Below are positions 35,818-54,992 of a stretch of DNA of 64,000 nt, one piece after another. The stretch is from the NCBI GenBank assembly GCA_041650295.1, contig JBAZLM010000001.1:128318-192317 (forward strand), given 5' to 3'. Source of the DNA: Candidatus Omnitrophota bacterium (GTDB taxonomy: Bacteria; Omnitrophota; Gorgyraeia; Gygaellales; Profunditerraquicolaceae). Position 1 is the stretch's first letter. Each line of letters opens with the position of its first letter. The notes under the pieces were generated by a model, which did not search any database, was not told the origin of the DNA, and worked only from the letters and a program-made list of their open reading frames with translations. Position numbers and translations under genes: made by a program.

Positions 35818-36747
35818 ATGAAGGAGGCAGGCGTGAAAAATAAAATTGTTCTATTCATTTTAGTCAGTGCGTTTTTTAGTGGCATCTTAGGTTGTGATAA
35901 AATTAAGCAGATGACTGCTCCTAAATCAGAAGCAAAAGTTGTAGCGCAGGGGCCAGCTATTCAGCCCAGGGGACCGATTGTAGCCAAAATAAATAATATC
36001 GCTATTGGTTTAGACGATCTTAACGATGAAATAGAGTTTTATAATGCTAATGTTCCTGAAGAGAGCCCAGAGTTAAAAATTACTACTAGAGAACAAAAAA
36101 TAAACTATTTAAAAAATGAAGTTATCCGTCGTACTTTAATTTATCAGCAGGCTTTAGATAAAGGTTTAGATAGAAATGATGAGGTGCGCCAGGCAGTTGA
36201 GAAGAATAAACGAGAGATGATGGTGATGCAAAATGTGCAAGATATTGTTAAAAATATTACTGCTTCCTCTAAAGAAGTAGAGGATTATTACAATACCTAT
36301 AAGGATCAGCTAAAAGAACCCGAAGAGCGTAAGGTTTCTGAAATTGTGGTTGGCTCGGAACAAGAAGCCAAAGATCTTTTAGTGCAACTTTTGCAGGGCG
36401 CAAACTTTACTACTTTAGCTAAGGCTAATTCTAAAGCACCTAGTGCTGCAGATGGTGGGGTTATAGATTTTGTAGCCAAAGGTGTAAAATCGGAACAATT
36501 TGATGAAGTAGTTTTTGCTTCGACCTTAGACATAGGTGAGTTAAGTAGTATATTTAAGACTCCCGAAGGTTATAGTATCATTAGATTAGATGCTAAGCGT
36601 GGTGGTAAATTAAAACCGCTTTCTGAGATGTGGGATGATATTAATCGAGGGTTAGTTTATATGAAACAACAGCAGGCAATTGAAGAACTCGTCGGCAAAC
36701 TTTCTCGAGATGCTAAAATCGAGGTTTCTGAAGGGGAGATTAAATAA
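35818..36747 (+). CDS. PpiC-type (parvulin) peptidyl-prolyl isomerase lipoprotein (SurA/PrsA-like)
   Basis: Lipobox ILGCD; C-terminal parvulin domain (KVSEIVVGSEQEAKDLL..GGVIDFVAKG..TPEGYSIIRLD). An alternative GTG start at 35833, five nt after AGGAGG, is likely. Confidence 0.55.
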   Translation: MKEAGVKNKIVLFILVSAFFSGILGCDKIKQMTAPKSEAKVVAQGPAIQPRGPIVAKINNIAIGLDDLNDEIEFYNANVPEESPELKITTREQKINYLKNEVIRRTLIYQQALDKGLDRNDEVRQAVEKNKREMMVMQNVQDIVKNITASSKEVEDYYNTYKDQLKEPEERKVSEIVVGSEQEAKDLLVQLLQGANFTTLAKANSKAPSAADGGVIDFVAKGVKSEQFDEVVFASTLDIGELSSIFKTPEGYSIIRLDAKRGGKLKPLSEMWDDINRGLVYMKQQQAIEELVGKLSRDAKIEVSEGEIK

Positions 36748-37643
36748 TGGCCATTGAAAAACAGAAGCTCATTTTGATTAGTGGAGTGGTCTTAGGAATT
36801 GTGGCGATTGTGATGACTAAGATGTATTTGGATCAACAGCAAGAAGAGATTCGGGCTAAGGCAAAAAAAGCAGTTGCTAATATGCAAGCTAATCAAGTAG
36901 CGGTTCTGGTGGCCAAAAAAGATATTCCGGTTGGCGTGGTGATTGATTCGAATATGTTAGAAACTGCAATTGTTCCAAATCAATATGTGCAGCCTCAAGC
37001 GGTAACTTCTTTGGATAGAATTGCTGGAATGATTACAATTGCACCGATTGCTAAAGATGAACAAGTCAGCCTTTCTAAATTAGTCACTAGCAAAAAAGCG
37101 GGCGGGGGAGATCTCTCGGGAGTAACTCCGGCTGGTAAAAGGGCAATTTCGATTGTTGTCGACAATATCTCTTCTTTATCTGGGATGATTAGACCTAATG
37201 ATTATGTTGATGTATTGGCGACGATTCAGGTTCCAGCGCACGGTGCTGATGGGCAAGTTGTAAACCAGATGGCAGTAGTTCCTTTATTTCAAAATATTTT
37301 AGTTTTAGCGGTAGGATCTGATACTGGTGGGCCTGCTTCAGATAGTAGTCGTTATGCAGATAAAGGACCTTCCGGTAATACTTTAATTACTTTGGCTTTA
37401 GGTCCTCAAGAATCTAATTTAATAGCTTTTGTTCAAGAGCAAGGCAAGATTCGTTTAATTATGCGGTCTCCGGCGGATGCTAAGGTTGAACAAATGCCAC
37501 CGGCTAGTTGGGATACATTATTTCAATATATTGCACCACAGCAACAGTTTAATCCCGATGATCAAGCTGAGCCGGTTGATACTACGGAGTATGTTGAAGT
37601 TTTACGTGGATTAAATAAAGAAAAAATCCCTATATCTAAATAG
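36747..37643 (+). CDS. cpaB: Flp pilus assembly protein CpaB/RcpC
   Basis: N-terminal TM helix, then a SAF-type domain (VAVLVAKKDIPVGVVIDSNMLE..VPNQY); position directly upstream of the secretin. Confidence 0.65.
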   Translation: MAIEKQKLILISGVVLGIVAIVMTKMYLDQQQEEIRAKAKKAVANMQANQVAVLVAKKDIPVGVVIDSNMLETAIVPNQYVQPQAVTSLDRIAGMITIAPIAKDEQVSLSKLVTSKKAGGGDLSGVTPAGKRAISIVVDNISSLSGMIRPNDYVDVLATIQVPAHGADGQVVNQMAVVPLFQNILVLAVGSDTGGPASDSSRYADKGPSGNTLITLALGPQESNLIAFVQEQGKIRLIMRSPADAKVEQMPPASWDTLFQYIAPQQQFNPDDQAEPVDTTEYVEVLRGLNKEKIPISK

Positions 37644-37658: not shown

Positions 37659-39257
37659 ATGAGAAAGTTATTTTTAAATCTAGTAATCGTAGCTACCTTT
37701 ATTACGGTTTTACCTTTTAAAGGATTTTCCGCCGGTGGAGCTGAAGAGGAGATAAAGCTTTATATTGGACATCCTCAAATTATCTCTGTGAGCTCTCCTA
37801 AGCGAGTGGCAGTGGGTAATCCAGAGATTGCCGATGTTGGTAATATTAGTAAAACCGAATTAACCGTTAATCCTAAAATAGCCGGATCGACTAATTTAAT
37901 TGTTTGGGATAATTTTGGTGAGCAGTCTTATCGGTTGAAGGTGTTTGCTGAAGATATTCATGAGATTAAGCGACGCATTGATAGCATACTTTCTACGTTA
38001 GATTTAACAGGGGTTTATACTAAAGCTGAAGAAGATGAAGCCCGAGTAGCACTTTTAGGAACTGTAAAATTTGCTAAAGATAAAGAAAAAATCACTACTG
38101 CTTTAGCGGGATTAAAAAGTAAGACCGTAGATTTAACTACGGTTAAGGAAGAAGAATCGGTGATTGAAATTGATGTCCAAGTAATTGAATTAAACTCTGG
38201 GTCTAGAGAAAAAGTAGGGTTTACTTGGCCTGAAAGTATTAATTTAACTGAGTTGGCTTCACAGGCAACTGCTGCTCCGGGAACCACATCTTTTGCAAAA
38301 TTATTTACTCTTGGTAATTTGACGCGAAATGTTTTTAATTTGAATTTAGATATGTTAGTTAAGGAAGGTAAAGCGCGCATACTTTCTCGTCCGCGACTTT
38401 CTTGTCAAAGCGGTAAGGAGGCTAAGCTAGTTGTCGGAGGAGAGGTCCCGATATTAAGTGGTTCCGTTACTCCTGGCACAAGCGGTCCAACTCCTGGGGC
38501 GACAACTGGTGGTTCTGTAGAATATAAAGAATATGGAATTATTTTAAATGTTAAACCGCAGCTTACCGATACCGGACGTATTCATCTTAATCTAGACGTT
38601 TCTGTAACTGATCTAGGAGAAGAGGTTAAAACAGATTACGCTTTAGCTTATAAAATGATTAAACGTTCAGCAACTACAGAATTATTCTTAGATAATCAAC
38701 AAACCATGGCCATTGGTGGATTGATTAAAAAGAAGTCAGCTGATCAATTAAGAAAAGTTCCTTGGCTCTCTGATATTCCAGTTTTAGGAGTATTTTTTAG
38801 GCAAAAAATTTCCGATCAAGGTTCAACCAGTGACCAGTCATTTACTGAGGATACAGAACTTTTTATTACTCTTACTCCCACGGTAATAAGTAGAGTGAAG
38901 CCACAGGAAAAATCTCTAAAAATACTGTCTTCCAATATTCCTTCAGTTGGTGATGACAAAATAACTGATCCAGTTTTAAAATATTCGAAAATAATTCAAA
39001 AAAGAATTTTGGAAAAATTAGTTTATCCGGCAGAGGCCAAAGATGCTGGTTTTCAGGGAGCGGTAAGATTAAGTCTTAAGCTTTCTGCACAGGGAGATTT
39101 GTTAGATGTAAAATTAAAGGATTCTTCTAGTTTTAGAGTGCTTGATGAAGGAACATTAAAGACTGCCAAGGAGATCTCTCCGTATCCACCATTTCCTCCT
39201 GAAATAAAGGATAAAGAGGTTTGGGTGGAGATTCCAATAATTTATCAATTAGAATAA
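37659..39257 (+). CDS. cpaC: Tad secretin CpaC/RcpA with C-terminal TonB_C-like extension
   Basis: Signal peptide; secretin core (..GGLIKKKSADQLRKVPWLSDIPVLGVFFRQK..TELFITLTPTVI). Extra C-terminus YPAEAKDAGFQGAVRLSLKLSAQGDLLDVKLKDSSSFRVLDEGTLKTAKEISPYPPFP resembles the TonB C-terminal domain. Confidence 0.7.
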   Translation: MRKLFLNLVIVATFITVLPFKGFSAGGAEEEIKLYIGHPQIISVSSPKRVAVGNPEIADVGNISKTELTVNPKIAGSTNLIVWDNFGEQSYRLKVFAEDIHEIKRRIDSILSTLDLTGVYTKAEEDEARVALLGTVKFAKDKEKITTALAGLKSKTVDLTTVKEEESVIEIDVQVIELNSGSREKVGFTWPESINLTELASQATAAPGTTSFAKLFTLGNLTRNVFNLNLDMLVKEGKARILSRPRLSCQSGKEAKLVVGGEVPILSGSVTPGTSGPTPGATTGGSVEYKEYGIILNVKPQLTDTGRIHLNLDVSVTDLGEEVKTDYALAYKMIKRSATTELFLDNQQTMAIGGLIKKKSADQLRKVPWLSDIPVLGVFFRQKISDQGSTSDQSFTEDTELFITLTPTVISRVKPQEKSLKILSSNIPSVGDDKITDPVLKYSKIIQKRILEKLVYPAEAKDAGFQGAVRLSLKLSAQGDLLDVKLKDSSSFRVLDEGTLKTAKEISPYPPFPPEIKDKEVWVEIPIIYQLE

Positions 39258-39258
39258 A

Positions 39259-41421
39259 ATGTCCAAAACAATTGTAATATTTAGCACTAAAGGCGGTGTT
39301 GGCAAGACTTTAGTGGCAACTAATTTAGCAGTATCTTTGGCGCAAGTTGGCAAGCGCGTCTGTTTGATTGATTTAGATACGCAGGTTGTCGGCGACATGG
39401 CGCACATGTTGGGTTTAGTTCCGCAGCGGTGTTTAGCGGATCTGATGAATATTCTAACTAAACAGCCACAGTTAACCAAGAAAAAAGATTTTATCATTAG
39501 AAGCGATTCTGCGAATATTGATTTTATTCCTGGAGTATTGAAACCACAACAATCTGGCTACCTTATTGCTGAAAAAATTCCCGAAGTTTTTTCTTTTTTA
39601 GAAAAAGATTATGATTATATTGTAGTGGATGCGGGAAAAAGTTTTAGCGATGTTTTTCTTTCCACATTAAGTCAAGCTAATTTGATTTTACTAGTCGCCA
39701 CCCCGGATGTGCTTTCCATTGAGCAAACTAAATGGGCTTTAGAGACATTGCAGATGTTACATTTTCCGTTAAGCATGGTAAGGTTAATACTCAACAGGTC
39801 AGAGTCTTTATCTAGTATTAGTTGGCAGGAGATTCGGGTTAATTTGCCAGTTAATATCATTGAAAAAGTTCCTTCCGACGGTAAATTAGTAAATTTGGCG
39901 GTTAATCGTAGGGTGCCTGTAGTGATTGATGCGGCACGTTCTAAAATTGCATTGGCTTTTTCTGAACTCGCCGATATTTTAATTGCAGATAAAGGAATAT
40001 TTACGGAACGAAAAAATATTGACCAGATTAAAATGAAGGAAGTAGCTCGCGAAAAATCTGGTCAATTTTGGATGGAACAGGATCTTAATACTGGGGTGCT
40101 TGAGCCAGATACTTATGAAGGCCGGGATGAGATTTTAGTGCTTAAGCGTCGGATTCACAGCCGCCTTTTAGAAAACATGAAGATTAAAAGTATAGATCTT
40201 AATGTTTTTAGTGATCAAAAAAAAGCTAAAGATTTAAAAAATAGTGCAGAAGCGATGGTGAATAATCTTTTAGTTGAGGAGGCAGGTAGCTTTATCCCTT
40301 CTCAAGAAGTGCGCAAAGGCCTGGTTAAAGAGATATTAGACGAAGCCTTAGGATTAGGGGCTTTAGAGGATTTATTAGCTGATCCGGAAATTACGGATAT
40401 TATGGTTAATAATAAGGATGAGGTTTTTGTTGAACGTTTTGGAAAAATTGAACTGACGAATAAAAAATTTATTTCTAATGATCAGGTACGTACAATTATT
40501 GAACGTATTATTGCTCCGATTGGTAGACGTATTGATGAATCAGTGCCAATGGTTGATGCGCGTTTAACCGATGGTTCTCGAGTAAATGCAATTATTTCGC
40601 CACTATCTTTGACCGGTCCAACCCTAACGATTAGAAAATTTCGTAAAGAAAGATATCGGGTTAATGATTTATTGGCTTTTGGTGCGCTGAATACGGCGAT
40701 GGCAGATTTTATTAAAGCCTCGGTATTGTGTCGTAAAAATATGATTGTCTCTGGAGGAACTGGCTCTGGAAAAACTACAGTTTTAAATGCTTTGTCTGAA
40801 TTTATTCCCGAAGGAGAAAGAATTATTACCTTAGAGGATGCGGCGGAACTTAAATTAAATCAACGACATTGGATTAGATTAGAGTCTCGACCGATGAATA
40901 TTGAAGGTAAGGGTGGGTTAACCATTCGAGATCTTTTTCGTAATACTCTACGTATGCGTCCAGATCGAATTATCGTCGGAGAATGCCGTGGTTCTGAATC
41001 ACTAGATATGTTGCAAGCGATGAATACTGGCCACGATGGCTCTATGACCACTATTCATGCTAACTCGGCTTCAGATGTTTTAAGCCGACTGGATTCTATG
41101 ATTTTGATGTCGGGAATTGAGTTACCGGTGAGAGCAATCCGAGAGATGGTTTCTTCAGCGGTTGATATTATTGTGCACACTGCTCGGCTTAGCGATGGTT
41201 CACGTAAAGTTTTGTCAATTGCTGAAGTGGCCGGAATGAAGGACGAAGCACATATAAATTTAAGCGACATCTTTGTTTTTACGCAAACTGGCGTAGATGC
41301 TCAAGGAAAGGTGCAGGGGTATTTTACTGCTACTGGTTATAAACCTACATTCTTAAATGAAATTAGGATGCGGGGCGTTGAAATTTCTGATGATGTTTTT
41401 AAGCCTACCAAATCTAAATAA
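39259..41421 (+). CDS. fused TadZ/CpaE-like ParA ATPase + TadA/CpaF secretion ATPase
   Basis: N-terminal deviant Walker A (STKGGVGKT, MinD/ParA). C-terminal half carries the T2SSE/VirB11 motifs: Walker [10 protein letters not shown], Asp box [10 protein letters not shown] and His box [16 protein letters not shown]. Confidence 0.75.
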
Positions 41422-41855: not shown

Positions 41856-43820
41856 ATGGGAGTAATTCATAAGCTCACACCTGAAGTTTTAAGCTTTATT
41901 ATCGAGAATAAACAAAAAAATCCTGCCTTAAGTTGTCGCCAATTAACTTTAACGGTTTTAGAGCAATTTCAAATTAAAGTCTCCAAGTCTAGTATCAATT
42001 CTATTTTTAAAGAAAATAATTTAAGTATGCCCATTGGAAGAAGGCGTAAACAAAAAAAACTTAAATTTAATATGCCTGATTTACCGGTTATTGAGGGGGT
42101 TAAATCTGTAGCTGTGATTACTCCCACAAAGGAAAGTAGACCTTCGGTAATTAATGTTGTAATTAAAGAGGAATCTGTTAAAGAGGAACCTGTGCAAGAG
42201 AAACCTAAGCTTCAAGAAGAACGAATTAATGAAGCGGAGGTCTGGGCCAAACAATTACAGGAAGAAGAGCGCATTAGAATTGAGAAAAAGCGAGTTTTAG
42301 ATGATGAAGCTAAAACAGCGACGAATAATCAACGTCTAATTGATGAAGAAAATAGACTTTTAAAAGAAAAAGTTGCGCAAGAACAAGCCTTAATTGCTGA
42401 AAAAGAGAAATGGGCTCGATTAGCTCAGGAAGAGCAGCAGGCTAAGCATCGAGAGCTACCTAAAGAAATAGAGCCAGTTAAGGTTCAAGAAACGGTATTT
42501 AAATCTCTTCCGCAAGAGAGAGCTTGCTCTGGAGCAGTTTTATTGCGGGGGCTAGATTATTTAGTAGGAGGTAGTAAAGAAATAAATGAATTAATTAGCA
42601 AGGGGATCGGCGGTAATCTAGCAGAAAATTTAAATCTTACACAAGCACTAATTTTTAGATCTTTATTTGATAAAGAAAATTTTTCCTCACTTGGAGATTT
42701 AATTGGCGTACAATATTCTTTAGAAAAAGTAGATAGCTATGCTGCTCAGGTTAATCAGCTCCCTGAAATTGGTTTAGAGCTTGCTAAAATAATTGCTCGT
42801 ATTTTTACGCAAGTTAAGGGGGTAAGAGTTAACTTTGCGGATGCCAGCGTAGCTAATCTAGATGCCCAACTACATTCTAGCTGGTCAACCTTTTGGTTTC
42901 CTTATAATTTTTCTAGCCCAATCAATGATTTAAAAAATAATTTAAATAAATATTTTTTTCAAGAGCAAAGATTGGTATTATTTTCTGCCCCCGGTTATGA
43001 TGTACTCTCTAAAGATTTTTTCAGTTTGATCTCTAATATGCTCAGCAATATTAAGCCGACCAGTTTAACTTTATTTGGTAGTGAATTAAATGAATTAGAG
43101 ACGTTAACTTTAAATAACGACGAGAAATACTCTTTAGCTTTTGGTCTTTGGCCTTGGCAGTTTACTAGTAATCGTAAGGTTAAACGCATCGGAGAGTTTT
43201 CTTTAAGAAAGGTTAAAGGTATCTCTCAAGATTTGTATTTAGGTGAAATTGAAATTGAGCTTTTACGTTTATCGGCTAATCAAAGTATAACCTTAAAAGG
43301 TTGTGCCATTAAAACTAATCCAATAGAAAAAATTCGTTTGGTAGTTTTAAGTACGGATGAGCAACCAGAAAGTTTAGAAGATTTGGCCGCCGCCTATTTA
43401 AGTCGTTGGCCAAATTTTGATGAGGCTTTTCAGGATTTTAGTCGTAAAATTGAACTTTTTACTTATGCCGGTAATGAAAAAAAGTTTTTAACTAAGGACA
43501 AGTTTGAACTTAATGCAGAGTTGCTAAAATCTAAAGCGCCAGAGATCTTTGCAAGCTATATACAGATGCTAGATCTTTACTTGCGTTGGCATTTCTTTCC
43601 TGCGGATTATATGGATAAAGATATTTCTTTTACTAGCAAGAATTTTTATAATCTTCCCGTAATGCTTGCAGCAGTTGAAGATAGGGTTATAGCTAGACTG
43701 CAAATTGGGCCAACTAATCCTCTGTTAAAGGATCTGGAATATTGTTTACGGCGGCTTAATGAGCGACAAATTGATTTAGTAGATGGAGCGCGGCTTTGCT
43801 TTGAAAGCGCTTCCAAATAG
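41856..43820 (+). CDS. hypothetical protein with N-terminal homeodomain-like HTH and long E/K/Q-rich coiled coil
   Basis: N-terminal LTPEVLSFIIENKQKNPALSCRQLTLTVLEQFQIKVSKSSINSIF is a transposase-type HTH; residues ~110-200 are highly charged coiled coil; the C-terminal ~400 aa have no known motif. RBS GGAGG. Confidence 0.35.
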   Translation: MGVIHKLTPEVLSFIIENKQKNPALSCRQLTLTVLEQFQIKVSKSSINSIFKENNLSMPIGRRRKQKKLKFNMPDLPVIEGVKSVAVITPTKESRPSVINVVIKEESVKEEPVQEKPKLQEERINEAEVWAKQLQEEERIRIEKKRVLDDEAKTATNNQRLIDEENRLLKEKVAQEQALIAEKEKWARLAQEEQQAKHRELPKEIEPVKVQETVFKSLPQERACSGAVLLRGLDYLVGGSKEINELISKGIGGNLAENLNLTQALIFRSLFDKENFSSLGDLIGVQYSLEKVDSYAAQVNQLPEIGLELAKIIARIFTQVKGVRVNFADASVANLDAQLHSSWSTFWFPYNFSSPINDLKNNLNKYFFQEQRLVLFSAPGYDVLSKDFFSLISNMLSNIKPTSLTLFGSELNELETLTLNNDEKYSLAFGLWPWQFTSNRKVKRIGEFSLRKVKGISQDLYLGEIEIELLRLSANQSITLKGCAIKTNPIEKIRLVVLSTDEQPESLEDLAAAYLSRWPNFDEAFQDFSRKIELFTYAGNEKKFLTKDKFELNAELLKSKAPEIFASYIQMLDLYLRWHFFPADYMDKDISFTSKNFYNLPVMLAAVEDRVIARLQIGPTNPLLKDLEYCLRRLNERQIDLVDGARLCFESASK

Positions 43821-43902
43821 AGCGTAAATGATATTGATTATTTGATTTTAAGGTGGTATATTTTAGATAGTTAAAGTTAGGTAATTATTCGGGAGCTGAT
43901 AG

Positions 43903-44049
43903 GTGAAAGATTCGCAATTAACTGGGCAAAGCATTTTAGAGTATGTCATTATTTTTGCAGTTGTTGCGCTTCTATCTGTTGCGTTATTACCAGAGATTAA
44001 AAATATATTTGATAGTTATGTCAATAGCGCCACCGGAGCAATGAAATGA
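43903..44049 (+). CDS. flp: Flp-family pilin (GTG start, 48 aa)
   Basis: VKDSQLTGQSILEYVIIFAVVALLSVALL carries the class-III prepilin motif G/QSILEY plus a hydrophobic helix; not in the track (<60 aa). Confidence 0.55.
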   Translation: MKDSQLTGQSILEYVIIFAVVALLSVALLPEIKNIFDSYVNSATGAMK

Positions 44050-44207
44050 TCTTGTGTAGACATAGAGGACAAAGCGTAGTTGAATACACCTTATTGATTA
44101 TTATTGTAGCGGCGGCTTTAGCGGCGATGTCTACTTATATTATGCGCTCAATGAATGCTCGTTTAAAGTCAGCGCAAGATGAGATGAATTATTATCGTCA
44201 AGATTAA
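44046..44207 (+). CDS. flp: Flp-family pilin (53 aa)
   Basis: MILCRHRGQSVVEYTLLIIIVAAALAAM carries the G/QSVVEY motif; overlaps the previous gene by 4 nt (ATGA), consistent with translational coupling. Confidence 0.55.
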   Translation: MILCRHRGQSVVEYTLLIIIVAAALAAMSTYIMRSMNARLKSAQDEMNYYRQD

Positions 44208-44231
44208 TGAAATTATTTTTGAAGGAGAGAG

Positions 44232-44396
44232 ATGAAAAGATTAGATAAAGCCCAAAGCACTTTAGAGTATGTAATTATTTTAGCTGCAGTAGTAGGAGCA
44301 ATCTTGGTTGTGGCTTCGGCTTTGAAGTCAAAGATGTCAACTGAGGTTTATCCGACGATGATGAATAAAATGTCGGATGCAGTGAAAAAAATTTAA
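44232..44396 (+). CDS. flp: Flp-family pilin (54 aa)
   Basis: MKRLDKAQSTLEYVIILAAVVGAILVVA; RBS GAAGGAGAGAG. Confidence 0.6.
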   Translation: MKRLDKAQSTLEYVIILAAVVGAILVVASALKSKMSTEVYPTMMNKMSDAVKKI

Positions 44397-44427
44397 TAGG
44401 AAGGTAAATATAATAAGGAGAAGAAAG

Positions 44428-44613
44428 ATGAAAATATCAAAAAAAGCACAAAGCACTTTAGAGTATGTAATTATTCTAGCAGCGATTGTAGGAGGAATTC
44501 TTCTGGCTGCGTCATTAATAAAAGGGAAGTTAGAGAATGAAACGACTGGTCCGGTGGGTAAAATAATGGGCAAGGCGGTAGAAAAAGTGGGAGAAGTAGA
44601 TTTTACTAAATAA
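44428..44613 (+). CDS. flp: Flp-family pilin (61 aa)
   Basis: MKISKKAQSTLEYVIILAAIVGGILLAA. Confidence 0.65.
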   Translation: MKISKKAQSTLEYVIILAAIVGGILLAASLIKGKLENETTGPVGKIMGKAVEKVGEVDFTK

Positions 44614-44627
44614 TGGAGAGGGTAAAG

Positions 44628-44807
44628 ATGAAAATAACTAGAAAAGCTCAAAGTACTTTAGAGTATGTAATTATTCTGGCAGCAGTGGTGGGAGCAATTA
44701 TAGTCATAGCAGTTTTTGTGAAAAAAAACATAGGCGATGACGCTGGAATGTATGGGACTTTAGGTGAAAGCATGGAAAAATCCGTCAAGGATGATTTTAA
44801 ATTTTAA
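44628..44807 (+). CDS. flp: Flp-family pilin (59 aa)
   Basis: MKITRKAQSTLEYVIILAAVVGAIIVIA; RBS GGAGAGGG (the track ORF begins 15 nt earlier). Confidence 0.65.
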   Translation: MKITRKAQSTLEYVIILAAVVGAIIVIAVFVKKNIGDDAGMYGTLGESMEKSVKDDFKF

Positions 44808-44820
44808 CAAAGGGGAGATT

Positions 44821-45171
44821 ATGTTAAAACGACTAATCAAGGGTCAAAGTACTGCAGAGTATGCAATTGTCATTGGGCTGGTGATTGCTGCAGCTGTAGC
44901 GATGCAAGTTTTTGTTAAGCGACAATTGCAAGGAAAGATGAAAAATGTTACTGATGCTGAAGTAGCAGCAAATAAAGATGGAGATACATTTGGAGTCAAT
45001 GAGTATCTGCAATATGAACCACAGGAAACTTATAGCCAAGGTGCTATGGTGTCGGAAAGTGAATCTGAGGTAAAAGTTACAACTACTAAGGGTGGAGCGG
45101 TGACTAGGAGTATGCTGAAGGATGAGGTTTCATCAAGAACAGGTACTCAAATAATAGAAGAAGTAAAATAA
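44821..45171 (+). CDS. flp: Flp-family pilin with extended C-terminus (116 aa)
   Basis: MLKRLIKGQSTAEYAIVIGLVIAAAVAM carries G/QSTAEY; RBS AAGGGGAG; the track ORF starts at 44764. Confidence 0.6.
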   Translation: MLKRLIKGQSTAEYAIVIGLVIAAAVAMQVFVKRQLQGKMKNVTDAEVAANKDGDTFGVNEYLQYEPQETYSQGAMVSESESEVKVTTTKGGAVTRSMLKDEVSSRTGTQIIEEVK

Positions 45172-45186
45172 GAATAGGAGGAAGAG

Positions 45187-45489
45187 ATGTTTTATAAAAG
45201 AATAAAAGCTCAAAGCACATTAGAATATGTAATTTTGATTGGTTTTGTAGTGGCTGCCCTGATTGCTATGGGTGTTTATATGAAAAGAGGCGTGCAGGGG
45301 AAGATTCGTGATTCTAGTGATCAGATTGGTGAACAATATGAAGCGGGTAAAACTACGAGTAAATATACGATCACAACTGATTTGGACCAAACGGAAACAG
45401 TGAGTGGTTCCGGAAAAACAACAACTAAAATTAATAAAAATACTCAAACTAAAAAACAAGATGCTGCGGAAGTGGTGCCGGATCTTTAA
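45187..45489 (+). CDS. flp: Flp-family pilin (100 aa)
   Basis: MFYKRIKAQSTLEYVILIGFVVAALIAM; the first ~150 nt are identical to the gene at 46284. Confidence 0.6.
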   Translation: MFYKRIKAQSTLEYVILIGFVVAALIAMGVYMKRGVQGKIRDSSDQIGEQYEAGKTTSKYTITTDLDQTETVSGSGKTTTKINKNTQTKKQDAAEVVPDL

Positions 45490-45519
45490 TTGGAAGTGTT
45501 TTTTGAGGAGGGATTAAAT

Positions 45520-45852
45520 ATGTTAAAGCAAAAAAATCTTGGCCAAAGTACCGCAGAGTATGCAATTGTAATTGGGTTGGTGATTGCGGCGGCTGTTGCA
45601 ATGCAGATTTATGTGAAGCGTGGATTACAGGGTAAGATGAAAGGCGCGGTAGATTATTCACCAGATACGAAAATATTTACAACTAAACAATTTGAACCTG
45701 CGTATAGCGATAGTGTTATGAATACTACGAAAACAGGTTCGACTACTGTTGAGACAAAAGAAGGTGGTGGCGTGGAAAGAAGGCTTACTGCAGCTGGTGA
45801 AGTGACCAAGTCTACTGGGACCCAAACTACTTTAGGGGTAGGAGAATATTAA
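45520..45852 (+). CDS. flp: Flp-family pilin (110 aa)
   Basis: MLKQKNLGQSTAEYAIVIGLVIAAAVAM; N-terminus near-identical to the gene at 45909; the track ORF starts at 45490. Confidence 0.6.
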   Translation: MLKQKNLGQSTAEYAIVIGLVIAAAVAMQIYVKRGLQGKMKGAVDYSPDTKIFTTKQFEPAYSDSVMNTTKTGSTTVETKEGGGVERRLTAAGEVTKSTGTQTTLGVGEY

Positions 45853-45908
45853 TAAAAGAAATGATACTATTGTGTAAATTTTAATACTTTGCGTAGGAGG
45901 CGATTAAT

Positions 45909-46271
45909 ATGTTAAAGCAAAAAAATCTTGGCCAAAGTACCGCAGAATACGCGATTGTCATTGGATTAGTAATTGCTGCGGTTGTGGCGATGCAGATTTA
46001 TGTTAAACGTGGTCTACAGGCTAAAATGAGGGATGCGGTAATGGTAAAAGGCGACGGTGCGGATACTTTAATGACGAATGAAGCATATGAGCCAGATTAT
46101 AGTAGCAGTAGTATGGATATTGTAAGAACTGCTGCAGAGTCAACGGAGATGGCAGATCAAGGGAAAGTAATAAGAACATTAGCTGGTAAGGGTGGCGCAG
46201 AATATGATGTAACTACTAGAAAGGGTGATCAGTCAACATCTACTTTAGCTAGTGACGGCGTGAAAAGATAA
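45909..46271 (+). CDS. flp: Flp-family pilin (120 aa)
   Basis: MLKQKNLGQSTAEYAIVIGLVIAAVVAM. Confidence 0.6.
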   Translation: MLKQKNLGQSTAEYAIVIGLVIAAVVAMQIYVKRGLQAKMRDAVMVKGDGADTLMTNEAYEPDYSSSSMDIVRTAAESTEMADQGKVIRTLAGKGGAEYDVTTRKGDQSTSTLASDGVKR

Positions 46272-46283
46272 TAGGAGGAAGAG

Positions 46284-46607
46284 ATGTTTTATAAAAGAAT
46301 AAAAGCTCAAAGCACATTAGAATATGTAATTTTGATTGGTTTTGTAGTGGCTGCCCTGATTGCTATGGGTGTTTATATGAAAAGAGGCGTGCAGGGGAAG
46401 ATTCGTGATTCTAGTGATCAGATTGGCGGACAATATGATGCCAAGGATACATCATCCGAGTATATTACAAAGACTTATATAAAACAGAATGAATATCAAT
46501 ATAAGGGCGGTGGAAGCAAGACTGAAATTGCTGATAACAACCCAGAGAATTATAAAATAGAGAAAAAGGGCAGTGAAACTGTGGAAAAAGATCTTTCGAT
46601 AAAGTAA
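46284..46607 (+). CDS. flp: Flp-family pilin (107 aa)
   Basis: MFYKRIKAQSTLEYVILIGFVVAALIAM; duplicate N-terminal cassette of the 45187 gene. Confidence 0.6.
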   Translation: MFYKRIKAQSTLEYVILIGFVVAALIAMGVYMKRGVQGKIRDSSDQIGGQYDAKDTSSEYITKTYIKQNEYQYKGGGSKTEIADNNPENYKIEKKGSETVEKDLSIK

Positions 46608-46630
46608 GTTAAATAAGAAAGGACGTTAAA

Positions 46631-47932
46631 ATGAAAAATCTGCGCGGACAAAATACCCTAGAGTATATTTTTATAATTGGGATTGTAGCTGCGGGATTAG
46701 CTGCGATGTTAGTTTATTTTGGTCGTGCATTTCAAGGAAATATTCGTGATAAGGCTGAGCAGTTAGGTGCGGGGCAATATGATCCGGGAAAGATGACGGT
46801 CGATAACAAAACAACAAAAACAGTAAGCTCTACTGTTATATCTAAGGATATCACTAAAATTCAATATGCAGATCTGAGTTTTGCAAAAACATTACAGGAT
46901 CAGATTACTGCACAGTTGGCACTTATGAAGTTGAATGAAATAGATTTGATGGCGCTACGTAATGATTATGAGAAAGCCATTCAAGCAGAAGCAGCGAAGC
47001 AAGCTAATTATGGAGTAATTGATAAAATTAAAGATAGGCTGGCACCAAGTTTTAGCGGGGAAGCAAATAAGGAAAAAATTGAGGGTCTTTTAGCCCAAGC
47101 ACAAAATTTGAAAGCGCAAATAGATAATGCGGCAGCTAATGAGAATAAGCTAACAGTGCAGCTAAATATTGCTAATGAAGATTTGGCTAAAGATCCAGAT
47201 AATGCGCAGCTTAAAGATTCAGTGGCATCAATCCAAAAACAAATCGATCAACTTAAAGAAAGTGGTCCTATGGTTCAGCTTGCGTATGATCGGGCAGTTT
47301 TAGAGTATATGGATAAGAAGTTGGCATCTAGTGCTACGGATGCAACCTGTCAGGCAAGATTTAATCAACTTGTTAAATCTTATACTGCGCCTCCATGTGA
47401 GTCAGTAGATCCATTAGAATGTTCAACCCCATATTATTCTGACCCTTATTATGGCAAAGAAACAAAAGCTTGTAGCCCTCCTGGATCATGTGGACCTCCA
47501 TACGAAAGTCCAGAGCAAGCTAAAAATGATATACAGGCGCAACTAGATGCTAAACTAGAGGAAGGAAAAAAAGAGGGTGAGGCTGAAGATAATCCTTTAA
47601 TTGCGATTGATTATACTGATGGACAAAAAGAAGCACTTCAAAATAAAACGGCTACCGTGTTTGATGCGATTGATGCGATTAGGCCGCCTTTTAGCGTTAA
47701 AAATATTGGGGATATGGAGCTCACTGCTATTGAATATCAAACTAAGCTTTTAAATAAGGAAACCGAATATTTTACAAATGTTACAAATTATTTAAGTTTA
47801 TCTCAACAGTTAAAACAATTATATGCAACCAATTTGAAGCCAAATGAAACTTTGTATGTAGGCCATGAAAACCAAGCGGACGTTCATACAAGCGTTATAA
47901 AAACAAAGAAAGAAAATTTGAATAAATTTTAA
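46631..47932 (+). CDS. Flp-like prepilin N-terminus fused to 400-aa coiled-coil/Cys-rich extension (possible tip adhesin/minor pilin)
   Basis: MKNLRGQNTLEYIFIIGIVAAGLAAM, then a long α-helical region (KLNEIDLMALRNDYEKAIQAEAAKQ...) and a Cys/Pro-rich segment (PPCESVDPLECSTPYYSDPYYGKETKACSPPGSCGPPYE). Confidence 0.5.
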   Translation: MKNLRGQNTLEYIFIIGIVAAGLAAMLVYFGRAFQGNIRDKAEQLGAGQYDPGKMTVDNKTTKTVSSTVISKDITKIQYADLSFAKTLQDQITAQLALMKLNEIDLMALRNDYEKAIQAEAAKQANYGVIDKIKDRLAPSFSGEANKEKIEGLLAQAQNLKAQIDNAAANENKLTVQLNIANEDLAKDPDNAQLKDSVASIQKQIDQLKESGPMVQLAYDRAVLEYMDKKLASSATDATCQARFNQLVKSYTAPPCESVDPLECSTPYYSDPYYGKETKACSPPGSCGPPYESPEQAKNDIQAQLDAKLEEGKKEGEAEDNPLIAIDYTDGQKEALQNKTATVFDAIDAIRPPFSVKNIGDMELTAIEYQTKLLNKETEYFTNVTNYLSLSQQLKQLYATNLKPNETLYVGHENQADVHTSVIKTKKENLNKF

Positions 47933-47942
47933 TGAAATATTA

Positions 47943-48284
47943 ATGATTAATTTAAGAAAAATAAAAGCTTTTAGTAAGGGTCAAAACTTAGCGGAGGTGG
48001 CTTTAGTTGTTGCTTTAGTAGGATTGGTTTTTGCGGGGATGCAAATTTATTTAAAACGTGGCGTACAGGGTAAGTTAAAAGATTTAACGGATACAATGGT
48101 TAGCAATGGTAGCCCGGCACAGGCGGCCAACCCCGATTCTACTAAGGCACACGAGAGCTCAAGGAACAACATTGTTTCTGTCTCTTCAACAACTTTTGAA
48201 GAGTCTAAGGATGGGGTGAGAAGTCTATCTGGTATAGAGGAAACAAAAACAGAAACAAGTTCATATTCTTTAACTGAAGAGTAA
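47943..48284 (+). CDS. Flp-like pilin (113 aa, G/QNLAEV variant)
   Basis: SKGQNLAEVALVVALVGLVFAGMQIY. Confidence 0.5.
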   Translation: MINLRKIKAFSKGQNLAEVALVVALVGLVFAGMQIYLKRGVQGKLKDLTDTMVSNGSPAQAANPDSTKAHESSRNNIVSVSSTTFEESKDGVRSLSGIEETKTETSSYSLTEE

Positions 48285-48305: not shown

Positions 48306-48995
48306 GTGATGTTTAAAGAGAAAGCACAAGCAATTACAGAATTAGCAATCTTGGGGGTCTTGGTGATTGTAGCTTTTTCATTTTTAATTAGTTATAGTGA
48401 AAAGCTAAATCGCCAACAGGCAAATATGCAACAAACCTTTCGAGCGGCTCTTGATGAGGCAAAAAAAATTAATAATTCTATTAATTATACAAAAAAAGTT
48501 TTTTCGCGTATGCCTAGTATTGAAAATCCTAAAGAGTTAGGTCAATTGGAGACTTTTAATGACAATGCTACTCTTTTGTGGAGTGATGGTATGGATACTG
48601 AGAATGTTTATTATTTTGATCCTGTAAGTAAAGAATGGGTTTTATCAGGCAGGTATGTACTCCCTGGGACATCGAAGTATCAATTTAATGATGCTGTTAA
48701 AACAATACCTTCTACCCCTAATGAATATGATGAATATGGAAACTTGATCCCTCCTTCTATGGATAATAAAGGAGTAATTTCTACTACGGATAGCTCTGTT
48801 CATGATACTAAAGCCACTACTATTTTAAGTCAAAAAAGTGTTTTAGGGGATGCAAATATGACTACGGAAAAAAAGTTTGAGGCTACAGACACGGTGACTA
48901 CAACTGTAAATATTGACGGACAAACTTATACTTTTTCTCATTCTTTAGGAGAGCATGGTAAATATTCTTCTGTGGGAGCAGGGGTCAAGCGTTAA
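48306..48995 (+). CDS. TadE/TadF-like pseudopilin (229 aa)
   Basis: MMFKEKAQAITELAILGVLVIVAFSFLIS is a TadE-like N-terminus, followed by a large periplasmic domain. Confidence 0.45.
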   Translation: MMFKEKAQAITELAILGVLVIVAFSFLISYSEKLNRQQANMQQTFRAALDEAKKINNSINYTKKVFSRMPSIENPKELGQLETFNDNATLLWSDGMDTENVYYFDPVSKEWVLSGRYVLPGTSKYQFNDAVKTIPSTPNEYDEYGNLIPPSMDNKGVISTTDSSVHDTKATTILSQKSVLGDANMTTEKKFEATDTVTTTVNIDGQTYTFSHSLGEHGKYSSVGAGVKR

Positions 48996-49007: not shown

Positions 49008-49310
49008 ATGAAAAATAAAGCTCAGGCCACCTTAGAATTTACGGTAGTTTTTATAATCATGGTTGCTTTACTTATAGGTATGGTTAAATTATGGAAAATG
49101 TCTAGTGATAGGATTATTAGTCGCCAGGTAGAATATAATGCTAGCCGCCTAAAAGCAGGGGAGAAAGACGCTACTTTAGTAGCGCCTCTGAAGGTAATAA
49201 AAAAAGGTAGTGGTAGTGGTAGTTATGCTGGTAAAGCTGGTGGCTATGGAGGTGGTAGTAGTGGTTATAGTGGTGGTGGTTATGGTCCAGTAGGTGGAGG
49301 TGGATGGTAA
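49008..49310 (+). CDS. TadE-like pseudopilin with Gly/Ser-rich tail (100 aa)
   Basis: MKNKAQATLEFTVVFIIMVALLIGM; C-terminal GSGSGSYAGKAGGYGGGSSGYSGGGYGPVGGGGW. Confidence 0.45.
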   Translation: MKNKAQATLEFTVVFIIMVALLIGMVKLWKMSSDRIISRQVEYNASRLKAGEKDATLVAPLKVIKKGSGSGSYAGKAGGYGGGSSGYSGGGYGPVGGGGW

Positions 49311-49320
49311 GTGTGGAGGA

Positions 49321-51081
49321 ATGATGTTTTTTTCTTGGTATATTAAAAATAGACATTTTAAGCAAGGGAACAGTTTTTCTGGTCAGATTGTTCCTTTTTT
49401 ATTGGTAATTATAGTTGTTTTGCTAATTGCTGCAGTATCTGTGATTCAAATAGGAAGAGTCTCTATTGATAAAACTGCTACCGCTAATGCCGCAGATGCG
49501 GGTTCTTTGGCTGCTGCTTCCAGTTGGGCTTCAGCACTTAATAGCTTAACTTTTGATAATGTTAATTTATTTTCTGGGTTTGATCTTAGGAAGTATTTAG
49601 TTAACGCTACTCTTATTCCCCAAGCAAATTATTATTTAGCCTTAACTGCACTTTATGTCAAAGCTTCAGAAAAAGAAGCGATGGTTGGTGCCGCTTTTAT
49701 GGCGGGCGGCATGCTACCGATTCCTTGTGTAGAATTAGCGGCAATTCTTGCTGCAGAATGGTATATGACTCAAGCGATGATGTATACAAATAAGGCATTG
49801 AGTAATTTACAATCTTATTTACAACTTTTATATTTTATAAAATTAGTGACAGAAGAATGTTATAATAACCAACAACAAGTGTATTTAGATATCAAAAATA
49901 GGATGGATGAAGCTTATCGTAATGCTAAAAAGGATGGGTTTCGTTTTGCTTTTATGAATAGCGGAGTAACTAGTAAACTTTCTAAAAAACAGGGAGATGA
50001 TTTCAATTTGTTTTTAGATAAAACAATTGCAGCAGGAGTTGATGCTGGTCAAGATACTATTCAGGTTGATTGGAAGGATAAAATGGGGAGAATTCATACT
50101 GTTTCAGCTACATTAGATTTACCAAATATAGAGTCTTATATGCTTTGGCGTTCCCAGCTTACTTATAATGAGATGCAATCATTATATGATGGAATTATAA
50201 ATAAAGTAAATAAATCGATATCAAAATTAAATAAAGCAATTTTAGAGTTAGGAATAACCGTTGTTGCATTGGGTGTGGCTGCTATAATTACTGCTGTGAT
50301 TTGTGTTTTGTTTTGCATTCCTCCATTTGGTACGATTGCAGCGGAAGTCATGAGCGCTGCTAATACGTGGACTAAAGTAGCTATTGCCCTAGGAATAACG
50401 GCATATATATCTACCGTGGTAGCAATGTTTAATACTTTTGAGGAGGATGAGGCTTCTTTGGAAAATATGGTAAATAATACTTTAATTGATCGGTCTTGGG
50501 ACAGTGGTCAATTAGTTGGCACTGCTTTTATCGATAAGTCTACATATTTGGATGTTCCTGCAACTTTAACTAAGGAGCAATTTTTAGCAGAAGTTTCCGG
50601 CGGACCTTGGAGTGGTTTATCTGAGTATCTAGCAATAACTTATCCTTATGGGGCAATGACATTGCAAGATGTAATGATTATTGCTATTGAAAGGGTTGAT
50701 TTAAAACCTGGTAAGCTATGGCAAGCAAAATTATGTACAACTCAGACTCATCCGGTGATAGATATTAGTTCTGGTGCGACGAAGAATGTTGTTACTACTA
50801 GCTGTTCTAGTTCTAAATTTGATGGTGGGAGTATGAAGATGAATTTTGCGATGTTTCCAGACCCTCCACATGCTTTGGACTGGCTAACTAATCTTGCCGG
50901 AAGCAGGACTACTTTAGAAAATGTTGCGGATGTTATAGAAGAGCGTAATCTTACATGGGAGTGGTATGCTGATACTGGCTGGGACCCTGTAGTTGTTCCA
51001 CCAACACCTGAAGATATTGAAAAAGCGTTAAGAGATTCTGTTGATGCCAATTATTCTCCACAGATTATTGCTACAGAGTAA
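49321..51081 (+). CDS. TadG-like pilus assembly protein (Tad_N domain)
   Basis: RBS GGAGG; FSGQIVPFLLVIIVVLLIAAVSVIQIGRVSIDKTATANAADAGSLAAASSWA matches the TadG N-terminal domain; large C-terminal domain; the track ORF begins at 49294. Confidence 0.55.
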   Translation: MMFFSWYIKNRHFKQGNSFSGQIVPFLLVIIVVLLIAAVSVIQIGRVSIDKTATANAADAGSLAAASSWASALNSLTFDNVNLFSGFDLRKYLVNATLIPQANYYLALTALYVKASEKEAMVGAAFMAGGMLPIPCVELAAILAAEWYMTQAMMYTNKALSNLQSYLQLLYFIKLVTEECYNNQQQVYLDIKNRMDEAYRNAKKDGFRFAFMNSGVTSKLSKKQGDDFNLFLDKTIAAGVDAGQDTIQVDWKDKMGRIHTVSATLDLPNIESYMLWRSQLTYNEMQSLYDGIINKVNKSISKLNKAILELGITVVALGVAAIITAVICVLFCIPPFGTIAAEVMSAANTWTKVAIALGITAYISTVVAMFNTFEEDEASLENMVNNTLIDRSWDSGQLVGTAFIDKSTYLDVPATLTKEQFLAEVSGGPWSGLSEYLAITYPYGAMTLQDVMIIAIERVDLKPGKLWQAKLCTTQTHPVIDISSGATKNVVTTSCSSSKFDGGSMKMNFAMFPDPPHALDWLTNLAGSRTTLENVADVIEERNLTWEWYADTGWDPVVVPPTPEDIEKALRDSVDANYSPQIIATE

Positions 51082-52081: not shown

Positions 52082-52927
52082 ATGCTTATTTTGCTCAGTA
52101 TCTTAATTTTAGCTTCAGTTATTTTAGTCTCAATTAGTCTTTTGCCTTTTTTTGTGCAAAAGGTTCAAGTTTGGCAAAAGAAGCAGGAAGTCGTAGTTGC
52201 TGAAAAGATGGATGAAATGTTTTATAATAAAAATCCTCGTAATATTGCCATGCTTTATATTATTCTTCCGTTTGTTTTTGGTATAGCCGGATATTTCTTA
52301 CTACAGTCTATTATTTTTGCTATTTTTGGGATATTTATTGGTTTAGTGATCCCAAATTTAATTTTAAAGATGCGTTATAAAAAGAGGCTTAAAATGTTTA
52401 ATAATCAGCTTTTGGATGCGATTAATATGCTTTCTAGCTGCTTAAAGGGTGGTTTAAGTCTTTTACAAGGTTTTGAGGTTTTAGTTGAAGAGATGCCTGC
52501 TCCGATAAGTGAAGAGTTTAGTTTGGTGGTTAAAGAAAACAAGATGGGGATTCCTTTGGAGGAAAGTTTAGTACGTTTGAATAAAAAGATGAACATGGAA
52601 GAGTTGGGTTTAGTAATTAATGCGCTTTTGGTTGCTCGGGAGACTGGAGGTGAGTTGACCAAGGTCTTTAGTCGTTTGATTATTACAATCAGAGATAATC
52701 GTAAACTTAAGGAAAGCATCCAAACTCTTACCTTGCAGGGTAGGCTCCAAGGAGCAATTATGTCTTTTTTGCCAATTGTTTTTGTGGCTTGGGTTCTTTC
52801 GGTAAATAAGAATCATTTTGATATTATGATGTCAAGTGATATTGGTAGAATGCTTTTAATCGGAGCAGTAGTATTGCAAATTGTGGGAATGATTTTAATT
52901 AAAAAGTTTAGTACAATTAAAATATAA
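52082..52927 (+). CDS. tadB: Flp pilus assembly protein TadB (T2SSF domain)
   Basis: TM-cytoplasmic T2SF domain-TM architecture; VARETGGELTKVFSRLIITIRDNRKLKESIQTLTLQGRLQGAIMSFLPIVF. Confidence 0.7.
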   Translation: MLILLSILILASVILVSISLLPFFVQKVQVWQKKQEVVVAEKMDEMFYNKNPRNIAMLYIILPFVFGIAGYFLLQSIIFAIFGIFIGLVIPNLILKMRYKKRLKMFNNQLLDAINMLSSCLKGGLSLLQGFEVLVEEMPAPISEEFSLVVKENKMGIPLEESLVRLNKKMNMEELGLVINALLVARETGGELTKVFSRLIITIRDNRKLKESIQTLTLQGRLQGAIMSFLPIVFVAWVLSVNKNHFDIMMSSDIGRMLLIGAVVLQIVGMILIKKFSTIKI

Positions 52928-52929
52928 AA

Positions 52930-53787
52930 ATGGAAATATTGTTATTTGTATTTGTTATTGCTGCAGTTGCCTTGATTACTTGGGGCGCGTTGCTTCATCA
53001 GCAAAACGCGCCTCTGCGCATGCCTAGTCAAATTGTAACCACTAAGTTTAAAAAATCCGGTCCAGATTTTGATAAAATTTTACCGACTCGGTCCTTATTA
53101 GATAGAACCGGGATGTTTGTTAGCATTAAAAATTCTTTAGATAATGCTCATATTAGTCTTTCTCCAGTAGCATTTTTTAATATTAAGATACTACTTTGTA
53201 TCTTGTTGACTGTGGTTCCAGGACTAGTGATGGGAAAAGCGGAGCCACCGTTAATTATTATTGGTTTGGGAATAGGATATTTTGGACCAGATTTTTATTT
53301 AAAACGTAAAATTAGTGAGCGCAAGTATTTGATTGCTCGTGGGCTTCCGGAAACAGTTGATCTTTTAAGTTTGTGTATTGAGGCTGGTTTAGATTTTATA
53401 AGCGCGGCTAGATGGGTAATTGATAAAACTCCGCGTACTCCAATGACTGAAGAGCTGGCCTTTGTGTTGGAAGAGGTTAAATGGGGTAAATCGCGAGTTC
53501 AAGCGCTTAAAGATATGGCACGTAGGATTAATGTCTCTGAAATGAGTTCATTTGTGCAAACGATTATTCAAGCTGAGCGTATGGGCACTCCAGTAGCAGA
53601 AGCATTTGCTATTCTTTCTGAAGATGCGCGTGCGCAAAGATTTCATCGTGGTGAAAGAATTGCTTTACAGGCGCCTATTAAGATCCTTCTTCCGCTAATT
53701 TTCTTTATTATGCCAGTAATTGGTATTGTTATTGGTGGTCCAATCTTGTTGCAATTTATGTCAGGTGGTTTTACCGGTCTTAAATAA
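52930..53787 (+). CDS. tadC: Flp pilus assembly protein TadC (T2SSF domain)
   Basis: LSLCIEAGLDFISAARWVID..AERMGTPVAEAFAILSEDARAQRFHRGERIALQAPIKILLPL. Confidence 0.7.
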   Translation: MEILLFVFVIAAVALITWGALLHQQNAPLRMPSQIVTTKFKKSGPDFDKILPTRSLLDRTGMFVSIKNSLDNAHISLSPVAFFNIKILLCILLTVVPGLVMGKAEPPLIIIGLGIGYFGPDFYLKRKISERKYLIARGLPETVDLLSLCIEAGLDFISAARWVIDKTPRTPMTEELAFVLEEVKWGKSRVQALKDMARRINVSEMSSFVQTIIQAERMGTPVAEAFAILSEDARAQRFHRGERIALQAPIKILLPLIFFIMPVIGIVIGGPILLQFMSGGFTGLK

Positions 53788-54714: not shown

Positions 54715-54734
54715 TGAGTGTAAGTTGAAAAGGT

Positions 54735-54860
54735 CTTAAAAGTAAACTTAGAGTAATCTAAGGACACAAAGCCACGGATCCTTAATCCAAAAAGCAGTCT
54801 CAAGGATAGCCGGGTTGCCAGGCCGACGAGAGTTGGAGTAATGACAACTCGGTTTTATTG
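54735..54860 (+). promoter_or_regulatory. candidate c-di-GMP-I (GEMM) riboswitch with intrinsic-terminator expression platform
   Basis: GNRA-capped hairpin CUUAGA-GUAA-UCUAAG (54747-62), immediately followed by GGACACAAAGCC (cf. GEMM GGACGCAAAGCC). P3-like hairpin GGAUCCUU...AAGGAUAGCC, then AGCCGGGUUGCC (cf. GEMM AGCGGGGUUACCG). Terminator GAGUUG-gaguaauga-CAACUC+GGUUUUAUUG (54830-58). Confidence 0.45.
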
Positions 54861-54992
54861 TAGAGTTTCACAAATGATTTAGAAAAGTATTTAATAAGAA
54901 ACCTGATGCCCATGAAAAGAGAAATAAAAAATCTAAAAGATTTTGGGGTAAGGGGAAAAATTTATTTTTTATTTATTAGTAATAGGTAAAAG

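Follow-up and report, generated by a model that had tools for sequence, protein, structure and literature searches.

The forward strand of the 64-kb window analysed here (the whole stretch, from contig JBAZLM010000001.1 of a Candidatus Omnitrophota metagenome-assembled genome, MAG) carries between 36.7 and 53.8 kb a locus for a Tad (tight-adherence, type IVc) pilus, which includes an array of ~13 small tandem prepilin genes (Table 1). Two of these genes, A1 and A2, open with a 157-nt perfect direct repeat (45173–45329 and 46270–46426, no mismatch), the longest exact repeat in the window, whose copies begin 1,097 bp apart. The repeat spans −14 to about +142/+143, counted from the start codons of A1 (45187) and A2 (46284), and both copies encode the same 48-aa peptide. 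Its edges are abrupt: upstream, identity is gone within 1–2 nt, at the stop codon of the preceding B gene, and downstream it drops to 27–53% per 30-nt interval. Even given a per-site identity of 82–90%, the chance of 157 identical bases is 3 × 10−14 to 7 × 10−8. The original prediction placed the perfectly conserved blocks, ribosome-binding site (RBS) included, at 45175–45335 and 46272–46432; perfect conservation and inclusion of the RBS both hold for the repeat as delimited here, but the blocks first named, 161 nt long, differ at two sites, 45330 (synonymous) and 45332 (E49G). Across a 51-codon 5′ block, the proportion of synonymous sites that differ (pS) between A1 and A2 is 0.03, and their C-terminal halves share 31% amino acid identity. 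The claim that the genes diverge completely downstream was therefore too strong, as these halves are still homologous (~31–35% amino acid identity) and have clear orthologues elsewhere.

A second pair of supposedly perfect blocks, at the starts of B2 and B3, proved to be conserved as protein but not as DNA. Between 45520–45640 and 45909–46029 there are 17 mismatches in 121 nt (86% identity), with a longest perfect run of 41 nt; 36 of 38 N-terminal residues are identical, and over 38 codons pS is 0.54 against a proportion of non-synonymous differences (pN) of 0.02. The likeness of B2 and B3 reflects purifying selection on the protein, without recent exchange of sequence. As an internal control, this pair therefore indicates that amino acid conservation of the pilin N-terminus does not by itself yield nucleotide identity. 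A third B-type gene, B1, had been overlooked; it lies directly upstream of A1 and is deeply diverged from B3 (pS 0.77).

Every gene of the array encodes a short basic leader, followed by [G/A]↓Q-[S/N]-x-x-E-[Y/V] (a class III signal) and ~20 hydrophobic residues, with Ala at −1 in A1 and A2. The Flp-type motif G/XXXXEY with Gln at +1 thus runs across the array, as in Flp/Tad pilins, but no array gene matched Pfam Flp_Fap (PF04964) at E ≤ 1, and none matched any Pfam or NCBIfam model above threshold; the only hits were sub-threshold, to Class_IIIsignal (PF04021, 16–20 bits; cutoff 23.7) and DUF4244. Calling these genes flp, as was first done, is accordingly apt for their motif and their place in a tad locus, but not for membership of the Pfam family. 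The mature A and B proteins (92–112 aa, with a predicted beta-hairpin) exceed the ~40–60 aa of short Flp pilins, which have no beta domain. A short mature pilin is, in turn, encoded by each of five small genes (43903–44807), which are 77–81% identical among themselves at their 5′ ends, give weak Class_IIIsignal matches and are likely candidates for the major pilin. The A and B pilins had no match in a sequence search of the PDB, and Foldseek against the PDB gave a best E of 0.95. A1 is 100% identical to WC543_00920, annotated as hypothetical in a Candidatus Omnitrophota MAG, although look-ups of the exact A1 and A2 sequences had given no hit. Two further pilin-like genes downstream of A2, encoding 433 and 113 aa, show no recent conversion. 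A scan of the array for promoters and terminators gave results at chance level, the sole plausible promoter-like site (43834–43862) lying ahead of the first small pilin gene.

Table 1. Features of the Tad locus and its prepilin array in the window, with the repeat-bearing genes first
Feature	Position	Strand	Remarks
Repeat copy 1, start of A1	45173–45329	+	RBS TAGGAGG, ATG, signal peptide MFYKRIKA↓Q, codons 1–48
Repeat copy 2, start of A2	46270–46426	+	Same module
A1 prepilin, 100 aa	45187–45489	+	C-terminal half A1-type, 'EQYEAGKTT.KYT...'
A2 prepilin, 107 aa	46284–46607	+	C-terminal half A2-type, 'QYDA[KR].T.SEY..'
B1 prepilin, 116 aa	44821–45171	+	Directly upstream of A1; stop codon 2 nt before repeat
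B2 prepilin, 110 aa	45520–45852	+	
B3 prepilin, 120 aa	45909–46271	+	Directly upstream of A2
Five small Flp-sized prepilin genes, 48–61 aa	43903–44807	+	Starts 43903, 44046, 44232, 44428, 44625
433-aa and 113-aa pilin-like proteins	46631–48284	+	433-aa protein with A-like N-terminus (D7, 70%)
Whole array, ~13 small tandem prepilin genes	43903–48284	+	
RcpC/CpaB	36747–37643	+	
Secretin	37659–39257	+	Extra C-terminal TonB_C domain (E 6 × 10−15)
Fused TadZ–TadA ATPase	39259–41421	+	One 720-aa open reading frame
Conserved 654-aa protein	41856–43820	+	No family match
TadE-like minor pilins	48306–48995 and 49008–49310	+	
TadG-like protein	49294–51081	+	
TadB and TadC platform proteins	52082–53787	+	One T2SSF domain apiece

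C-terminal halves and 5′ blocks across genomes

We compared the array with dozens of related Omnitrophota loci (L-numbered), a set enlarged by the retrieval of 75 further metagenome loci. B-type (~115 aa) and A-type (~100 aa) genes are nearly always arranged in adjacent B–A pairs with 10–40-nt spacers (L081, L082, L085, L001). Three such pairs are present in L085 and two in the others; L001 has a similar array, but rearranged. The window alone has the order B-A-B-B-A, an A gene apparently missing between B2 and B3. Across genomes, the C-terminal halves of the A genes fall into orthologous types: that of A1 ('EQYEAGKTTGKYT...') is orthologous to that of the first A gene of related loci, and that of A2 ('QYDA[KR]NT.SEYTT...') to that of the last. 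C-terminal identity is 43–64% between orthologues and 31–47% between paralogues of the same genome, and the A2-type clade, window A2 included, received 86% bootstrap support in a neighbour-joining tree.

The 5′ blocks, 92–99% identical within a locus, group by genome instead, with 100% bootstrap support for the window, L082, L085, L096 and L125, while the flanking parts of the genes keep the older orthologous phylogeny. Leader peptides are the same in paralogues of one genome but different between genomes (MFYKRIKA, MFYTRVKG, MFYSRAKG, MLYLRTKA). Paralogues within a genome are thus closer to each other in the tract than to their orthologues in other genomes, synonymous sites included: pS in the 51-codon block is as low in L085 (0.03) as in the window (0.03) and reaches 0.21 in L081 and 0.20 in L082, against saturated values of 0.71–0.81 between the window and its orthologues in other genomes. 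A pairs within a locus whose C-termini are <50% identical have a median nucleotide identity of 92% in the block, compared with a median of 75% (95th percentile 82%) in 1,963 pairs between loci (Mann–Whitney U test, p = 5 × 10−8); B pairs behave likewise (87% within vs 77% between loci, p = 9 × 10−9). The edges of the tract are also alike in four genomes, from TAGGAGG (−13/−14) to about codon 50. Taken together, the 5′ modules of A1 and A2 evolve in concert, and their C-terminal halves are old, independent lineages.

These comparisons bear on the proposal, part of the original prediction, that a pilin gene or its N-terminal module was recently duplicated and its C-terminus then replaced or shuffled, to which we give very little credence. 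Perfect 5′ identity with abrupt divergence beyond it is what such a history would leave, the number of B–A units does vary (two or three A genes among genomes), and L085 does hold an extra A1-like copy with 54–57% C-terminal identity. However, both A1- and A2-type C-termini have orthologues at the same syntenic position elsewhere, which makes them ancient lineages in a conserved B-A-B-A order rather than recent acquisitions, and the adjoining B1/B3 genes and flanks are anciently diverged. Within-genome 5′ identity moreover recurs in at least six lineages, so that duplication would have to occur in parallel and recreate the same two C-terminal types each time. It is also highly improbable that selection on the nucleotides themselves, for example on a cis-regulatory mRNA structure or a small-RNA target at the translation-initiation region, maintains the identity without recombination. 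The identity does begin exactly at the RBS, but synonymous sites of the block are saturated between orthologues of different genomes, indicating that its nucleotide sequence is itself unconstrained; its predicted RNA fold is no more stable than those of shuffled sequences (z = 0.29), and Rfam gave no match at the block. Nor would such selection account for the donor-matched variants of a sister species described below.

Motifs within the block reveal which copy was overwritten. In L082 the two copies alike carry GAQGRLRE, the A1-type motif, and in L085 all three carry GTEGKLRE, the A2-type motif, with both motifs persisting in L081 and L117; conversion has run in different directions in different lineages. 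Mosaic patches were seen in L081 and among the B genes of L085. In the latter, B2 and B3 are identical over at least 110 consecutive nt (7084–7193 vs 6315–6424), a stretch that takes in at least 60 nt of intergenic spacer 5′ of the ATG and ends at codon 17, beyond which B2 matches B1 instead; the B genes of L085 therefore read as a mosaic of tracts from different donors. B-type paralogues convert too, but less often, and in the window not recently.

One sister species is represented by six contigs from independent samples (L082, L083, L084, L087, L088, L095), 99.7–100% identical over up to 9 kb and identical in gene order. Ordinary single-nucleotide polymorphisms (SNPs) in this species are located in tadA and in the gene for a 663-aa protein. 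Within the pilin array, the sole variants lie in the 5′ block of A1, at +53, +98 and +113 in L087 and at +113 in L083, and each turns the A1 base into the A2 base at the paralogous position (chance ~5 × 10−8). As a negative control, four other near-identical locus pairs contained no donor-matched SNPs. The variants of L087 and L083 look like ongoing short-tract conversion, over at least 61 nt in L087.

Probable gene conversion of the N-terminal module

Concerted evolution confined to one module, with sharp edges, recurs in several lineages and is polymorphic in the sister species. We conclude that the 157-nt repeat is very probably the newest tract of recurrent, short-tract, non-reciprocal gene conversion between tandem prepilin paralogues. 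Gene conversion was one of the mechanisms originally suggested, and it is strongly supported by tree incongruence, by synonymous sites and by donor-matched SNPs; the suggestion named the right kind of mechanism, but had its direction wrong, as well as the analogy drawn with antigenic variation. In outline, A1 and A2 stem from a duplication older than the split among the sampled Omnitrophota lineages, since when their C-terminal halves, which form a predicted surface beta-hairpin, have evolved independently. The 5′ module (RBS, class III signal peptide and alpha-1 helix, the putative filament core) has been repeatedly overwritten by the copy of a paralogue. Tracts would end where homology is lost, upstream at the unrelated 3′ end of the B gene and downstream at the divergent, hairpin-coding part. 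RecA-type homologous recombination between tandem copies 0.7–1.1 kb apart is the presumed agent, and purifying selection on the helix may keep enough identity to seed the next conversion, making the process self-sustaining.

AlphaFold2 predicts a helix at residues 11–48 and then a beta-hairpin at 60–91 (64-sequence alignment; mean predicted local distance difference test score 69.6). The predicted helix coincides with the converted coding block, so that RBS, signal peptide and filament-core helix together make up the homogenised unit, and the unit that stays distinct is the hairpin, which is presumably exposed. An advantage of uniform N-termini could lie in co-assembly into one filament or in processing by one prepilin peptidase. 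We think it rather unlikely, though it bears stating, that homogenisation is itself selected, with several mid-sized A and B pilins, encoded throughout in alternating B–A pairs, co-polymerising on one helical core in a modular Tad filament, and conversion letting helix and signal peptide of all paralogues co-evolve as one. If so, the array would be a repertoire of 'one stalk, several faces', in which old, distinct hairpins serve attachment to different hosts or prey. Perfect identity over 157 nt should permit occasional crossovers, at low frequency, with loss of a 1,097-bp segment that holds the tail of A1 together with B2 and B3, and the varying number of B–A units among genomes fits such a birth-and-death dynamic.

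Several points weigh against this explanation. L099 is not homogenised (78%), from which it follows that conversion is episodic. All sequences are short-read metagenome assemblies, and such assemblies may thread chimerically through paralogous repeats and mimic small tracts, a concern especially for the SNPs of L083 and L087. The evidence from polymorphism comes from the sister species and bears only indirectly on the age and present activity of conversion in the organism of the window. The structural model is of moderate confidence only and has no matching solved structure. Finally, the advantage of uniform N-termini, suggested by analogy with other pilins, is putative, and they may instead be a neutral by-product.

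A more radical form of the concern over assembly, that reads of the two paralogues were collapsed into one consensus during assembly, seems to us most improbable. The window does derive from a short-read MAG, and a 157-nt repeat exceeds typical maximum k-mers; yet the same pattern occurs in at least seven independent assemblies from different projects and assemblers, with graded identities (84–99%) and mosaics that collapse would not be expected to produce, and the flanks of each copy in the window are unique and in frame, leaving two intact open reading frames (ORFs).

We are equally sceptical of programmed antigenic or phase variation, whether by conversion as in Neisseria pilE/pilS, by a shufflon or invertible segment, or by a diversity-generating retroelement. 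In Neisseria, silent donor cassettes truncated at the 5′ end supply a variable region that is moved into a single expression locus, in a RecA-dependent process that diversifies the pilin. The arrangement described here resembles this in its non-reciprocal transfer between pilin-related sequences with constant N-terminal and variable C-terminal regions, in its tandem pilin genes and in a direct repeat through which the 1,097-bp unit might be lost or duplicated. It differs in that neither partner is truncated, RBS, ATG and signal peptide being present in each of these complete genes, in that the constant region is transferred and in that the outcome is homogenising, with RecA dependence only presumed. 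The variable halves are, in addition, stable orthologues. Their ratio of non-synonymous to synonymous substitution rates (dN/dS), called for as a check in the original prediction, is mostly saturated and, where measurable, 0.2–0.7 with one pair near 1, and strains that are 98% identical show no non-synonymous change in these halves; there is no clear sign of diversifying selection, the values being mostly those of purifying or relaxed selection. Gene order was fixed in the six samples of the sister species, and the repeat is direct, perfect and N-terminal. Shufflons and invertible segments (R64 PilV/Rci; Moraxella Piv) and diversity-generating retroelements were rejected, as neither the array nor the rest of the window yielded inverted repeats, and no recombinase or reverse transcriptase was found among the scanned ORFs of the window. 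The comparison with type IV pilin antigenic variation was therefore misplaced.

Gene conversion of the N-terminal module has parallels among other filament systems. Homogenisation of the Campylobacter flagellins flaA and flaB spans most of the gene. PMC5126078 cites Meinersmann and Hiett (2000) for concerted evolution of these tandem genes, and for intragenomic recombination the work of Wassenaar (1995) and of Harrington (1997). A1/A2 and flaA/flaB alike are tandem paralogues of a filament subunit homogenised by intragenomic recombination or gene conversion. The pair A1/A2 differs in encoding pilins, not flagellins, and in that a single structural module with sharp edges is homogenised while the other half of the gene is anciently divergent. 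In Haloferax volcanii, PilA1–PilA6 share a nearly identical N-terminal H-domain that is needed for assembly (Esquivel et al. 2013, reviewed in PMC4371748), and they resemble the A/B pilins in combining a near-invariant N-terminal hydrophobic module and archaeal-type class III signal peptides with differing C-termini. The requirement for the H-domain suggests, by analogy, that uniform N-termini may be beneficial here too. The review does not present the Haloferax genes as a tandem array inside the biosynthesis locus, and its account of them documents no nucleotide-level concerted evolution or conversion tract; in the Omnitrophota pilins, the identity is visible at synonymous sites, alongside C-terminal orthology across genomes. 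Archaeal Epd pilins of Methanococcus maripaludis carry K-G↓Q with Gln at +1 and depend on EppA (PMC4371748, Table 1), and the array prepilins resemble them in the motif G/XXXXEY with Gln at +1. An archaeal, Epd-like origin has been proposed for Tad systems (PMC6668835), which the array motif fits.

That tandem paralogues undergo gene conversion is already well known, as is the conservation of pilin N-termini, for which Haloferax PilA1–PilA6 is the nearest precedent, and no new mechanism is involved. The new element is the example itself: clean, limited to one module and found among mid-sized Tad prepilins, an unannotated family from an uncultivated phylum, in which a pilin family evolves as two decoupled modules, visible at single-nucleotide resolution. 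For annotation, it follows that ~13 unannotated 'hypothetical' genes encode prepilins and belong to a Tad array conserved in Omnitrophota, and for phylogenetics that whole-gene trees of A/B pilins will mislead. Tad loci are common in Omnitrophota and have been tied to a predatory or parasitic lifestyle (PMC10066038), in a study that does not discuss pilin arrays of the phylum or their evolution; our results bear on how the multi-pilin Tad filaments of these putatively predatory or parasitic nanobacteria remain assembly-compatible.

The Tad locus and its surroundings

The locus has the make-up of a tad locus, with TadA, split TadB/TadC, TadZ, an RcpA-type secretin, RcpC and TadE/G-like proteins present (Table 1), and synteny comparison found the same organisation in many Omnitrophota contigs: secretin–TonB_C, TadZ–TadA, (DUF192), a protein of ~650 aa and 3–5 small pilins, followed by alternating B-A-B-A(-B-A), a large pilin, TadE/G-like proteins and TadB/C. 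The A/B pilins depart from classical Flp in being twice as large and in their predicted beta-hairpin; further departures from known Tad systems are the TadZ–TadA fusion and the TonB_C domain of the secretin. In the fusion, TadZ is a ParA/MinD-like ATPase and TadA a T2SSE protein. Scanning a genome collection with TadZ–TadA returned distant relatives only, the best at 54% identity from Omnitrophota MAGs; some of its matches are full-length, which suggests that Bdellovibrionales, Actinomycetota, Bacillota and others have the fusion too. The secretin–TonB_C fusion is kept in related Omnitrophota loci, L081, L082 and L085 among them. A prepilin peptidase of the TadV/CpaA type was looked for, and neither a G.GD.K motif in any frame of the window nor a Peptidase_A24 match among the scanned ORFs was found; such a gene could be located on another part of the 193-kb contig.

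Between tadA and the pilin array, all related loci encode a protein of 620–715 aa (L081 3112–5259, L082 2814–4805, L085 3025–4884), for which no Pfam or NCBIfam match was obtained. Most strain-level SNPs of the sister species fall in its gene.

Outside the Tad locus, the window is housekeeping chromosomal DNA, with hydrogenase/complex-I-like genes and genes for glutamate synthase, glutamine synthetase and CTP synthase. Directly 3′ of the locus, a giant open frame (54990–63998+, forward strand, >3,003 aa) continues past the window's last base, and a cyclic diguanylate (c-di-GMP-I) riboswitch (54731–54822, forward strand; 59.5 bits against a gathering score of 35) stands ~170 nt upstream of it. 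Giant ORFs are a noted trait of Omnitrophota (PMC10066038), and one under c-di-GMP control beside a pilus locus possibly deserves separate attention. On the other side, near-identical direct repeats surround a tRNA-Glu(CTC) gene at 35316–35392 (region 35128–35609, forward strand). Upstream of the tRNA is an 86-nt repeat pair (95% identical), and downstream are two more copies of the tRNA 3′-end sequence ('..GAAATCCGGTTGGGGCTA..') with 66–75-nt repeats, which resemble tRNA-3′ remnants or duplications like those of attachment (att) sites.

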